64,000 nucleotides of DNA from Escherichia coli (GTDB lineage Bacteria > Pseudomonadota > Gammaproteobacteria > Enterobacterales > Enterobacteriaceae): assembly GCF_013315695.1 (NCBI RefSeq), contig NZ_CP054353.1; one strand, given 5' to 3'. Position numbers and translations under genes: made by a program. The notes below the pieces were generated by a model. It was not told where the DNA came from, made no database searches, and worked only from the letters and a program-made list of their open reading frames with translations. Of the stretch, positions 53,980-59,215 are shown piece after piece. Position 1 is the stretch's first letter. Every line of letters starts with the position of its first letter.

Positions 53980-55658
53980 TTAATCAAAAAGTGATTCGAT
54001 GTCGTTAATGAGTTCGCTGGCGGTGATGTCGTCGAGCATGGAAAAAGTAAGTAAAGGTTGTTTACCGTAGCGATCATCTGGCGAGGTGATTTTTACGCTT
54101 TCAACAGGTAACAGGTCGCCATAACCTGTTTCGCCGTAAATTAATGAAAAATGTTCTGTTTCAAGTTCGAGATCGCCATAAGGGGTAGATTTGCGCATCG
54201 CATAGACGCTGCCGCTTTCTTCCAGGCGTTGCCAGCCTCGGCGCACTAGCCCGACAATGCGCCCTGCCTGGCAAAGACGTCCGCTCCAGCGTGTCAGTTC
54301 ATGAGTATTCTGTTCATTATCAGCAAGACGATAACTACCACGATCGAGCTGTTGGAAGGGGGGAAGCAGTTCGTAATCAGCGTAAATTTGCCTGAATGCA
54401 GCGGCAGATTCAGGGGGGATTTCCAGCATATGCGGAATACCGATGTTTCCTGCTGGTAGCGTGAATAGCTCATCCTGCATATCGCTGTAAGTGCTGTCTT
54501 CTGCGACCCGGAAGCAGGCAATCAGCGTGTTTTCCTCAGTATATACCCCCCATAACAGTCGTCGGGTTAAGTGACGTACCAGTGGGTGCTCCACCATGAA
54601 CAGGCGGAACTGCTCTGTTGTCCAGCGTCTGCGCTGGCACATAGCCTGTTCCAGACGATCAATCTGCTGGCTGGCTATGGCGCGTACATCTTTTTTCAAC
54701 TGTTTGAAGAGGTTAACGGCGTCAGTTGCCAGTGTTTTATCATCGCTCTGGTTTGGTTTGGGTAAGTCTTTCAGGACTTTGCCGTTTGCGTCACGAACCA
54801 TGGGTTTTAAGGTTTCGTCAAAACCAACGGTGAATTGACGTGGGCCGAAATCAAGTGTCAGCGAGCCGTTGATATCAAGCCCCAAATCTGGAGCCAGACG
54901 GTCTTCCAGTTCAGCCATTGTCAGTCCGCGATTTTTGGCGACCATATTGATTTTGTCGCTCGCATGTTCCTGCAATGCGGCGAATTTAATTTTTTGCGCA
55001 ATGCCATTAAGCAACATTAGCGCAATGTCGCTACCGATACTGGCTAACACATCCAGCCCGTAAACCGCGCGTTTATGCTGGGATTCACCCGGCCAGGCGC
55101 GGATAAGCGGGGTTAATTTACGCGCGGTGTCGTCATCGCCTAAAATTCCCAGCGAGGTAAATGCCCAGTTTTCTTTTGCGGGAGCGCCAGCTTCTGTCCA
55201 GGCGGTATACAGATCCCAGCCAAAGTCAGCCAGGGAATCGCGGGTGAAGGTGTCTTTGATGATCTCCAGCCCAGCGTAGGCGGTAATGTCGCGTGAAAAG
55301 CTCAACATAGTGCCGAGGTGGCGCATAGCGTCATCTGGCAGAGGCAGGTTGTTACTTTTAAGCCGTGGTCTGCGCCATAAGGTGAACTGATAAAAGCCGG
55401 GCAGTGGGGCGATTTTTGCGGGATGATCCTCAAGCGGATCGCTATCAAATAATGTTGCCAGCGCTGCTAAAATATCAGGTTGATTATATCCTTGGGCGAT
55501 TTCCTCAATCGTTTCTCGCTGGTTTAATTTCACTAGCAGGAGGAGTGCCTGGCGGGCATATTCCCGATTTTGGCACGGTTTGCCCAGCGCCAAAGGCAGT
55601 AGCCCGGCGGCGGCATGGCGCGGGTTATTTGCCAGCCAATTAACGGCATCCTTGTAAG
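53980..55658 (-). pseudogene. molR-like (WGR/DUF4132) gene, 3' portion downstream of the IS4 insertion
   Basis: ORF 53980..55593 (537 aa) lies directly 3' of the IS4 left end; DUF4132-like. Confidence 0.6.
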
Positions 55659-57084
55659 TAATGCCAGTCAGTTAAGCAACTGACTGGCTCTTTTTCGGGG
55701 CTGTGGGGTATTTCCAGGGCCTCTCCTTTACCACTCTCGGGAAGGCCCTTTCCCTTCTTGTCGGTAATTTCACAAGTTGTCCCATACTTGCAAGATCGCG
55801 CATCAGCTCCGGTATACGTCCCGGTGAAGCGCCCTGCAATGTCATCAGCATTCTCATCACCATTCCGCATGATTCTGAGAAACTCAGTTGATTCGGCCAG
55901 TAACCTTTCAGATGTTCCGCCATTTTAATCATCTGATATCTCACCAGATTATAAGCCAGTAAGACACCCCACAGCTCTTGCTCCACAAGCTCCGGTTTTT
56001 TACTTCTCAGCGTCAGCCTGCTCAGTTGCATCGTCTGTTTTATCTCCCTGTATCCCAGTTCGATTTCCCAGCGATGACTGTACAGATCCGCCATTTCTCC
56101 TCCGGGGAAGCGCATGGCGTCCGTCATCGACGTCAGCAGATGGCAGACTTTTCCTTTGCGCGTCACGGTCAGCAGGCGGGCTGTCACTTCATTTCCCAGT
56201 CCCGGCCACTTTTTTCGTGCCTGCGGGCTGGTTTTCAGCTTCACCAGATGATCGCCTTTACCCAGTTTTCTGATCTCTTCATATTGCGCTCCCTTTCTGA
56301 GAGGTATCATCCAGTGGCGGTGTTCTCCCGCCAGGCTCCAGGCATTTAACAGTCCCAGTGAGTAATAACCTTTATCCATTAACGTCAGAGTGTTATCGCC
56401 GGTTTGTTCTATAAGTTGCTCAGCAAGCTCATTTTCGCTGTTCTTCATCGTGCCGAAGGCTGCAGCCGTCAGCAGATGGCTGGTCAGTTCCATCTGGCAG
56501 ACCATTTTGACCTGCGGGTAGAGCGCCGGGTTCCCGGCATGTGTCTGGCGGGGGAAGGCTGCATCGTTCTCTGGTGTATCCGGTGTGCGCCAGAACACAC
56601 CATCGATGGCCAGCAGGGTCAGGCCGCACCAGTGCGGATGCGGCGTGGCGTTATGCCAGAGCTGCGCTGTTTTCGTGAACACGCGGCGGACAGCCTCACT
56701 TCCCAGGCGCTGGCGGGCCTGAATAACGGCACTGGGGGCAACGAAGGGGCGATTGCCCGGCAGCATGATGTCCAGGCGATTCACAATCTGGTGAAGAGGT
56801 TCTTTACGCTCAAGCGCCATGCCAACAATACACCAGACCATCATTTCGAGGGGAAGACGGCGCTTGCGTAGCGTTACAGTACCTGATTCGGCAAGGCAAC
56901 GAGAGATGAGTTCGGGGTCGAGGTAATCCCCCAGAGAAGTCAGTGGGTTACGCAGAGAATCGTAACGGGATACCAGATCAAGAGCCTGTCCAATGTGCAT
57001 AAAAAAATCCGGAAACAAGTGAGCGTTTCCGGATTCTTACACAGCCACTGGATCGGTCAACTGATCCTTAACTGATCGGCATTA
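55659..57084 (-). mobile_element. IS4 (1426 bp) with 18-bp terminal inverted repeats and a 12-bp target-site duplication
   Basis: Ends TAATGCCAGTCAGTTAAG ... CTTAACTGATCGGCATTA; flanked by direct repeats CATCCTTGTAAG at 55647-55658 and 57085-57096. Confidence 0.9.
55672..57000 (-). CDS. insG: IS4 transposase InsG
   Basis: 442 aa from [42 protein letters not shown]...; DDE transposase. Confidence 0.9.
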
Positions 57085-59215
57085 CATCCTTGTAAGCCAT
57101 TTTTTTCTGTAACCGCTGCGCCATTGGTAAGGCTAGTTCACTGGCCCCAATAAAGAGGGTGAATATCCACAGTCGTTGATGATCTCGTTGCAAGCAGGTC
57201 ATAAACGAAGGAATGGCCGTACTGCCAAAAATCCCCAGAATCTCTTTCTCACCTGAATATTGCTCCTCAATGATTATTTGGTTGAGAAATGAAATCGCCT
57301 GTTGTCCCGGTAAGTAACAAAGTGCAGATAGATTCCAGCTCTTGTTGGCATTGTTGTGATATTTCGCAAACTCAGCTTTTAGTGTTGGAAAATCAAAGCG
57401 CAACAAGGCATCAACAGCGCTTTGCGGTATATATTTTTTTTCATGCAAGTCATCCTCGCAATGCCGCCATTCATTAAAACCTAATTGCCAAAGGATTTGT
57501 TGTTCTGGTGTAAAAGGAATGAAAGATGTCTCCCAACTTTCTTTTTCAATTAGTGGCAGATCGGTAAATAAGGTTTGCTGTGATGCCTGATATTGCGCGA
57601 TTTCACTGAATCTGGATATGTCAGTATGACTGATTAACTCTGTAATTCCAGGTGTGATATCCGTCACGGCTGGAACAGGAAGCACAGGTAAATCAAATAC
57701 GGGTATTACATTTTTCTTCTTATTTATTACCCACGGTGGAGCGACAAATAGCTGCGGTAGCATATCCGCAGTAGCGTATTCATATTCTTCAGCGACTGAC
57801 TGAGGACGACATTCAGATAAGATGCCTGCCGCCTTAGCATTAACCCAGGGAATGACGTCGCATACTAACTCTGGCGTGATGGTAATCAATTTGACAAGCG
57901 CTTTATGCCACTCTTTATCTTCATGTATTGCCAGCAAAGTTGCATAAGCGGCAATAGCCGCAGCGGGATGTTTTTGACAGGCTTTGCTTAAGTATTCCAG
58001 GTGCTTTTTCTTGCCAATTACACCGAGGATCAGAATTTGAATCGCATCCGGGTGATTCGTTTTCCATAACCATTTGACAAGATCTTCAGTCTCGCTGATG
58101 CGCTCGAAGAGATAAGTGGGATTGTCAGAATGCTCTTCCACAAACTCAGTAAGTATCCGGCTTACACCGCTCACCCCATTATTTGCCAGCAACATTGCCA
58201 GATAAGCGCGAAAATCACGATATAACGGTGGGAAGTCGTATTTTTCTGCTGCAGTCAGAGCGGCATCATCGGTTACTACCAGTCTTAACCAGGTCATCGC
58301 CGGAACGTTTTGGTCTGCGTAACGTAGAGCCATAGCATTGGCAATATCCGGGCGTTCAGGGAGCAGTAACGCCGCAAAAGGTTGCCGTGCTGGGGATAGC
58401 GTCGGAATAGCAGTAAGCACTTTATTCACACAGCGTTGCCACTCATCTTCTGAAGCGAGTGAAAGATGATGACATAGACGTTGATGCCAACTCGGTAGCG
58501 ATTCTGCTTTGTGACCAGGTGGAATGATGGTGGTGACTGCGCCTTTTACTGGTTTATATTTGAGTTGAAGAGCAAAAAGGGCGATTTCAACGGCACTTTC
58601 CAGACCACAGCGAATGACTAAGTCATCGACCAGTTCATCTGCAGAGTAAGAGTTCCAAAAACTCCAGAGCAATGCCGCATCAGATTGCGCACTCCCTGTT
58701 TGTTGATTGTCCAGAATTCGACTTTGTAACTCGGCAAACGCTTGCTGCCAGTTTTCAGGATAAGAGCGGTAATTATTGTCGGGGTCATATGCCCTGGTGT
58801 TATTCGCAATGCGCTGCCATATTTGACCATCTTTGTGCAGATAATTGATCTCTCTGGGGCGAGAGCGATGTGGAAAAGCAAATCGATTAATATCGTCAGT
58901 GACAGGAATGACTGCATCATCAGCCAGCCATGGGTGTTTATTTTGACTCACAGGGGGAGTTTTAACTTCAGGAGTGGCTTTGGTGACTGGAGGGAGATAT
59001 ACGTTTGCCGAATTGCCTTCCACATACCCCTTTTTCGTTTTCTCCGCAATCAGCTTCAGCTCCGCTTTTTCCGCCGCCGCAGCATCCGCAAAACTTTTTA
59101 CCTGGTTTTGCCCTTTGGTGCCAACTTTTCCCCAACAGATATGCAACTCGTTTCCCTGCTGCTCCACCGCCCAGAATTTATGTGATTTTTCGTCCTGATA
59201 GATAAAGTGTTTCAT
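57085..59215 (-). pseudogene. molR-like (WGR/DUF4132) gene, 5' portion upstream of the IS4 insertion
   Basis: MKHFIYQDEKSHKFWAVEQQGNELHICWGKVGTKGQNQ (WGR domain); ORF runs into the IS4 right end; with the 3' part reconstructs about 1265 codons. Confidence 0.65.

Follow-up and report, generated by a model that had tools for sequence, protein, structure and literature searches.

An IS4 insertion in a WGR/DUF4132 gene near metG of Escherichia coli and its probable recurrence at one site

The window analyzed here is a 64,000-nucleotide stretch of Escherichia coli contig NZ_CP054353.1 (RefSeq assembly GCF_013315695.1). It contains a WGR/DUF4132 gene that is interrupted by a copy of the insertion sequence (IS) IS4. 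We refer to this gene, the metG-proximal WGR/DUF4132 paralogue, as par1, and by excision we mean the removal of positions 55659-57096. The following features make up the interrupted gene and the element.

53980..55658, minus strand: par1 3' fragment, 555 native codons and a stop, including DUF4132
55647..55658, strand not applicable: first copy of the target-site duplication, CATCCTTGTAAG, native to the interrupted gene
55659..57084, minus strand: complete IS4 of 1426 bp, its transposase co-directional with the interrupted gene
55659..55676, plus strand: terminal inverted repeat (18-mer) at the transposase-distal end, TAATGCCAGTCAGTTAAG
55672..57018, minus strand: open reading frame of the IS4 DDE transposase, 448 aa from a TTG start, assigned with Pfam and NCBIfam
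57067..57084, minus strand: terminal inverted repeat (18-mer) at the transposase-proximal end, TAATGCCGATCAGTTAAG as read on the minus strand
57068..59215, minus strand: par1 5' fragment, 710 native codons including WGR, then about five codons read from IS4 and a stop
57085..57096, strand not applicable: second copy of the target-site duplication, CATCCTTGTAAG

The first-pass annotation of this DNA had described an intact IS4 within a perfect 12-bp target duplication, and both descriptions hold. The 12-mer CATCCTTGTAAG occurs twice in the window, each time at an end of IS4 (0.02 occurrences expected by chance), and the direct repeat is not extendable by even one base on either side. IS4 duplicates roughly one helical turn of its target (11-13 bp), and the copies examined agree, with 12 bp here and 12 or 13 bp elsewhere. 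The terminal 18-mers are inverted, agree at 16 of 18 positions and are each other's sole matches in the window (0.01 expected). The element carries a single open reading frame, the full transposase, which matches the Pfam families Nterm_IS4 (1e-33) and DDE_Tnp_1 (1e-31) and the NCBIfam model for IS4-family transposases (NF033592; 304 bits against a cutoff of 115). An alternative start, the ATG at 57000 used in InsG of K-12, gives a protein of 442 aa. The identical transposase (WP_000483766.1) was found at several different sites in other genomes.

The IS4 of K-12 (insG, 1426 bp; IS4 family, IS4 subgroup) shares with the window copy its length, the imperfect 18-bp inverted repeats, the one DDE transposase frame and a 12-bp target duplication, there at the resident site. 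The window copy differs from it solely in location and in four point differences (4/1426 nt against the IS4 annotated in K-12 MG1655, 99.7% identity). Only one nucleotide separates it from one of the IS4 copies of strain IAI39, and the four point differences mark it as an IAI39-like variant.

Excision fuses the minus-strand frames 57068-59215 and 53980-55658 in frame into 1265 codons, with no discontinuity or additional lesion, as the first-pass annotation had anticipated. The rejoined protein begins with MKHFIYQDEK and contains WGR at residues 7-69 (64 bits, cutoff 22) and DUF4132 at residues 999-1182 (172 bits, cutoff 27); the domains earlier assigned to the upstream and downstream frames, respectively, are thus both found in domain searches. 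IS4 lies between them, after codon 710, and the 5' fragment is labeled in RefSeq as a ‘WGR domain-containing protein’ pseudogene. The excised gene is identical, over 3798/3798 nt, to the uninterrupted gene of strain MS 21-1 that encodes WP_000680156.1. Because of this identity, the event can be regarded as recent, in line with the simple and probably recent insertion first proposed; compared with the MS 21-1 gene, the window par1 has no further mutation since the insertion. The window has two IS1 copies (described below), and the 8449 bp that separate them contain only one difference from MS 21-1.

As a whole, these data are very probably best explained by a conventional IS4 transposition into the coding sequence of an accessory E. 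coli gene. The DDE transposase would have made staggered cuts 12 bp apart at a preferred pseudo-palindromic site, repair of the gaps would have generated the CATCCTTGTAAG duplication, and the insertion after codon 710 would have parted WGR from DUF4132 in the 1265-codon gene. The lineage with this insertion has about 15-20 IS4-matching places per genome, compared with one annotated copy in K-12, and such an abundance is what could let an assembler collapse or misplace a copy into the par1 locus. We consider such an artefact almost certainly wrong here, as both junctions are exact to the base and flanked by the 12-bp duplication, and six independent complete assemblies from different projects agree on this structure. 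IS4 occupies the par1 site in six of 5426 complete E. coli genomes and is annotated there in six RefSeq genomes. The insertion is ordinary biology, already annotated in public genomes.

The gene had been called molR-like, which is accurate for the domain architecture and inaccurate for orthology. The par1 protein shares 39-57% identity with K-12 YehF/YehH (the old molR) and about 32% with YehI. The K-12 interval between metG and yehL contains two WGR/DUF4132 genes, yehF+yehH (the molR pseudogene) and yehI, whereas strains MS 21-1, CFSAN061770, and N32 contain three. Next to par1 in the window lies the remnant of another member of the array, which we call par2.

53257..53967, minus strand: par2 stump, the N-terminal 236 codons of the orthologue of K-12 yehF/yehH (molR), truncated by IS1, 76% aa identity to K-12 YehF

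Given the low identity of par1 to YehF/YehH and the 76% identity of the neighboring stump to YehF, par1 is an extra paralogue and the stump is the molR orthologue. We accordingly rejected par1 as molR itself, the molR position being occupied by the adjacent stump; par1 is neither the closest counterpart of the K-12 gene nor at the equivalent position of the array, but the additional gene of strains with three paralogues. This corrects the identity of the gene, which is a paralogue absent from K-12 and situated between metG and the molR orthologue. It is the metG-proximal member of up to three tandem WGR+DUF4132 genes upstream of yehLMPQ. Like K-12 molR and yehI, par1 combines WGR and DUF4132 in a protein of about 1200-1265 aa and lies on the common strand in the metG-yehL interval; after excision it forms one polypeptide of 1265 aa with the two domains at its N- and C-terminal ends, as in the MolR/YehI type of about 1200 aa. 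The two genes differ in how they were lost: IS4 interrupts par1, whereas K-12 molR, annotated as yehF and a pseudogene, yehH, carries other inactivating lesions.

We also observed that the first ~200 nt of par2 (53770-53968) and par1 (59018-59216), which encode the start of WGR, are 91% identical in DNA, compared with about 40% for the whole proteins, an excess that points either to strong conservation of the 5' ends or to gene conversion there. The first 235 residues of par2 in the window share 60% of their amino acids with the CFSAN061770 protein (locus 7048-10809) and 76% with that of K-12. On these comparisons, the divergence of par2 between strains appears to far exceed normal allelic variation in E. 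coli.

When 1 kb of par1 surrounding the insertion site was compared with the 5426 complete genomes, 1638 of them had a match. The alleles fall into strongly diverged classes, with 665 genomes at ≥95% nucleotide identity and 964 at 80-90%. Between the window and CFSAN061770 alleles, the ratio of nonsynonymous to synonymous substitutions (dN/dS) is 0.17 with a dS of 0.25, while metG of the same two strains gives 0.037 and 0.16, respectively. A dN/dS of 0.17 between intact-type alleles argues that par1 is normally maintained by selection, apparently less tightly than a housekeeping gene.

The element also contains a structure that could extend the effect of the insertion beyond the interrupted codon.

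57001..57033, minus strand: hairpin followed by U7, just upstream of the transposase ATG, with the shape of an intrinsic terminator (-29.7 kcal/mol, z = -5.4)

This hairpin and U-run lie at the IS end first met by transcription of par1 and would be expected to block read-through. The gaps between par1, par2, and yehI are only ~9-12 bp. From the hairpin with its U7 and from this close spacing we infer that the insertion would be polar on the par1 3' fragment and on downstream genes, so that the fragment would be silenced, probably together with the closely spaced paralogue that follows it. A promoter-like sequence, TTGACC-16-AAGAAT, is located at 57033-57060 on the minus strand, where it shares sequence with the 5' arm of the hairpin that precedes the transposase ATG. 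Transcripts that start within the IS would lack the full hairpin, and read-through transcripts would form it, a layout that resembles the ‘protection from outside transcription’ of other IS elements.

The par1::IS4 event is not unique to the lineage of the window. In strain CFSAN061770, IS4 has joined par1 at exactly the same phosphodiester bonds; its orientation and the duplication are also those of the window, and the par1 allele is only 91-93% identical to the window allele at the nucleotide level. The two alleles begin to differ 48 bp left and 124 bp right of IS4. With IS4 excised, 1000 bp of CFSAN061770 flanking sequence match empty sites of other genomes at 100% identity, and the IS4 of this strain is the K-12 sequence variant, 4 nt from the window copy. 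In strain N32, the insertion is found in an IAI39-type par1 allele: the excised allele differs at 3/3807 nt from the intact par1 of IAI39, the region is 97.5% identical to the window, and two positions distinguish the N32 IS4 from the window copy, one of them common to another IS4 copy of IAI39. The most economical reading of these sequences is that at least three independent transpositions hit one site in par1, which would make it an IS4 target hotspot.

The par1 site reads TTAACGG, then CATCCTTGTAAG, then CCATTTTTTT, and the empty site reads CAATTAACGGCATCCTTGTAAGCCATTTTTTT. We compared it with six other IS4 sites, namely those at bamD-raiA of IAI39, at ynbB-ynbC of UPEC132, in a phage tail-fibre-assembly gene, in a phosphodiester glycosidase gene, at tam-lsrG, and the resident site of K-12. 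All six have duplications of 12-13 bp between arms of the form AAAAC(G)G ... (A/C)C(A/G)TTTTTTT, the left arm being A-rich; the site in IAI39 is a palindrome, AAAACGGCAGCCTTGAGCTGCCGTTTTTTT, that resembles a terminator. The par1 site, with ...AACGG at the left and CCATTTTTTT at the right, fits this pseudo-palindromic target pattern. Classical IS4 work of 1979, 1981, and 1984 reportedly described insertion at a single site of galT and an AAA-N20-TTT consensus. A strict target choice of this kind would lead to the same insertion arising independently in at least three par1 alleles. The locus would then be a clean natural example of extreme IS4 target selectivity, in which diverged alleles have received at least three insertions at the same bonds. 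At another locus, the intergenic region kup-ravA of strain VL40, the sequences on the two sides of IS4 do not match as a target duplication (left CCCCCTTTGAG, right CTCCTTCTGATG), pointing to a rearrangement that involved two IS4 copies of that genome.

Several points tell against the interpretation developed so far. Around the site, the diverged alleles share 47 identical bp on the left and 123 on the right, and import of IS4 with its immediate flanks by short homologous recombination keeps a formal chance of having produced the recurrent copies. The target consensus is based on just ~7 sites. Loss of par1 function and polarity are both read from the DNA, and a simple terminator scan gave no call at the 57001-57033 hairpin. 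With respect to recurrence, the insertion could have had a single origin and have spread to the N32 and CFSAN061770 alleles by recombination of a short tract containing IS4; crossovers within the identical stretches would be traceless, and the par1 alleles are visibly mosaic. We nevertheless regard this as unlikely. The three IS4 copies bear different variant nucleotides that match the IS4 pools of their own lineages, the copy of CFSAN061770 being of the K-12 type and that of N32 having the IAI39-type position 209. Empty sites with 100% identity show that the identical flanks belong natively to each allele; for CFSAN061770, these matches indicate that the conserved zone around the site belongs to the allele and was not imported. 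In addition, IS4 sites elsewhere share the target arms, so that site-specific re-insertion is expected. Common descent or an imported tract for the CFSAN061770 and N32 insertions was largely rejected on the basis of these variant markers and of the matching empty-site alleles, and independent transposition remains the preferred reading.

The order of events in the window lineage can be derived from related isolates and involves two IS1 copies that flank the interrupted gene at a distance.

52494..53261, plus strand: IS1, 768 bp, no target duplication, marking the deletion of the rest of par2, yehI, and yehK
63149-63916, direct orientation relative to the first IS1: second, identical IS1, 768 bp, no target duplication

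The second IS1 adjoins a deletion of the yehE 3' end, yehDCB, and part of yehA. Since neither copy has a target duplication and their flanks do not cross-match, each of them marks its own deletion. A composite transposon formed by the two copies in one event was rejected for the same features, the duplication in question being one of 9 bp. Isolate AF14 has the same IS4 insertion together with intact par2, yehI, and yehDCB fimbrial operon, whereas AF3 and MSB1_4I have, like the window, both the IS4 insertion and the two IS1-associated deletions. This indicates that IS4 inserted first and that the IS1 deletions followed; in the sublineage, the insertion would thus predate the loss of most of par2, yehI, yehK, and yehDCB. 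The two IS1 copies also bracket metG, and recombination between them would remove metG, par1::IS4, apbC, and most of yehE.

Further decay is visible in yehP, which encodes a VWA protein at 47671-48737 on the minus strand and is split into two open reading frames by a frameshift. There, 5 nt at 48387-48391 stand in place of about 75 nt present in K-12, corresponding to a deletion of ~70 nt. Lesions of par2 are also present in K-12 and IAI39, and in the sublineage L1a of sequence type 131 (ST131) the transposon TnMB1860 is inserted in the metG/DUF4132/yeh region (PMC9334617). TnMB1860 is likewise a mobile element that disrupts the WGR/DUF4132 array beside metG, in a clinically successful lineage of extra-intestinal pathogenic E. 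coli, but it is a large resistance transposon with blaCTX-M-15 in another lineage, whereas par1 has received a plain IS; the likeness is drawn at the level of the region (PMC9334617). Judging from these genomes, the WGR/DUF4132 array is evidently dispensable and often lost.

The AF14 isolate also bears on whether the insertion inactivates par1 at all. Both fragments retain long open frames (715 and 537-559 codons) with one recognizable domain left on each, and one could imagine two separately expressed, useful polypeptides, an N-terminal one with WGR and a C-terminal one with DUF4132 that is driven from within IS4. This is very improbable, given that our scan found no outward-facing promoter-like site toward the 3' fragment and that this fragment has acquired a frameshift in AF14, as expected of a dead gene. 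The neighboring paralogues and yehP are also destroyed in the window lineage, as in a system no longer under selection. Inactivation of par1 by IS4 remains the preferred explanation.

The insertion by itself matters little, being another IS that turns an accessory gene into a pseudogene already annotated in RefSeq in six genomes. It has modest value as a record of the stepwise decay, within one lineage, of the whole yeh cluster with its WGR/DUF4132, MoxR, VWA, and SWIM components, which could guide functional assignment. Searches for the function of par1 gave no lead. None of the PADLOC-DB protein models matched par1, YehL, YehM or YehQ at E ≤ 0.01, NCBIfam gave only sub-threshold matches to par1 in the WGR region, and the sole match of par1 in a sequence search of the PDB was the WGR domain of an uncharacterized Bacteroides protein (2ra8). 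In the literature on DUF4132/WGR, on the yeh genes, and on the MoxR/SWIM/WGR/vWA combination, we found no functional study, only the ST131 transposon paper. The strong allelic divergence and the companion proteins, a MoxR-type ATPase (YehL), a VWA protein (YehP), and a SWIM protein (YehQ), are compatible, as speculation, with a conflict-type system. We would give little credence to the further idea that the par1 site is more than an accidental IS4 target, in that the repeated IS4 hits, the IS1 deletions, the yehP lesion, and TnMB1860 in ST131 reflect recurrent selection for switching off this fast-diverging yeh system in extra-intestinal E. coli lineages, where it might serve conflict or immunity at a cost in some niches.

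Positions 1-41840, the greater part of the window, are a lambdoid prophage with tail, head, terminase, and lysis genes, a Q antiterminator, three tRNA genes, and Rha/KilA-N regulators. The prophage is inserted in mlrA (yehV), of which the first 68 nt are left at 41840-41907, adjoining btsS.

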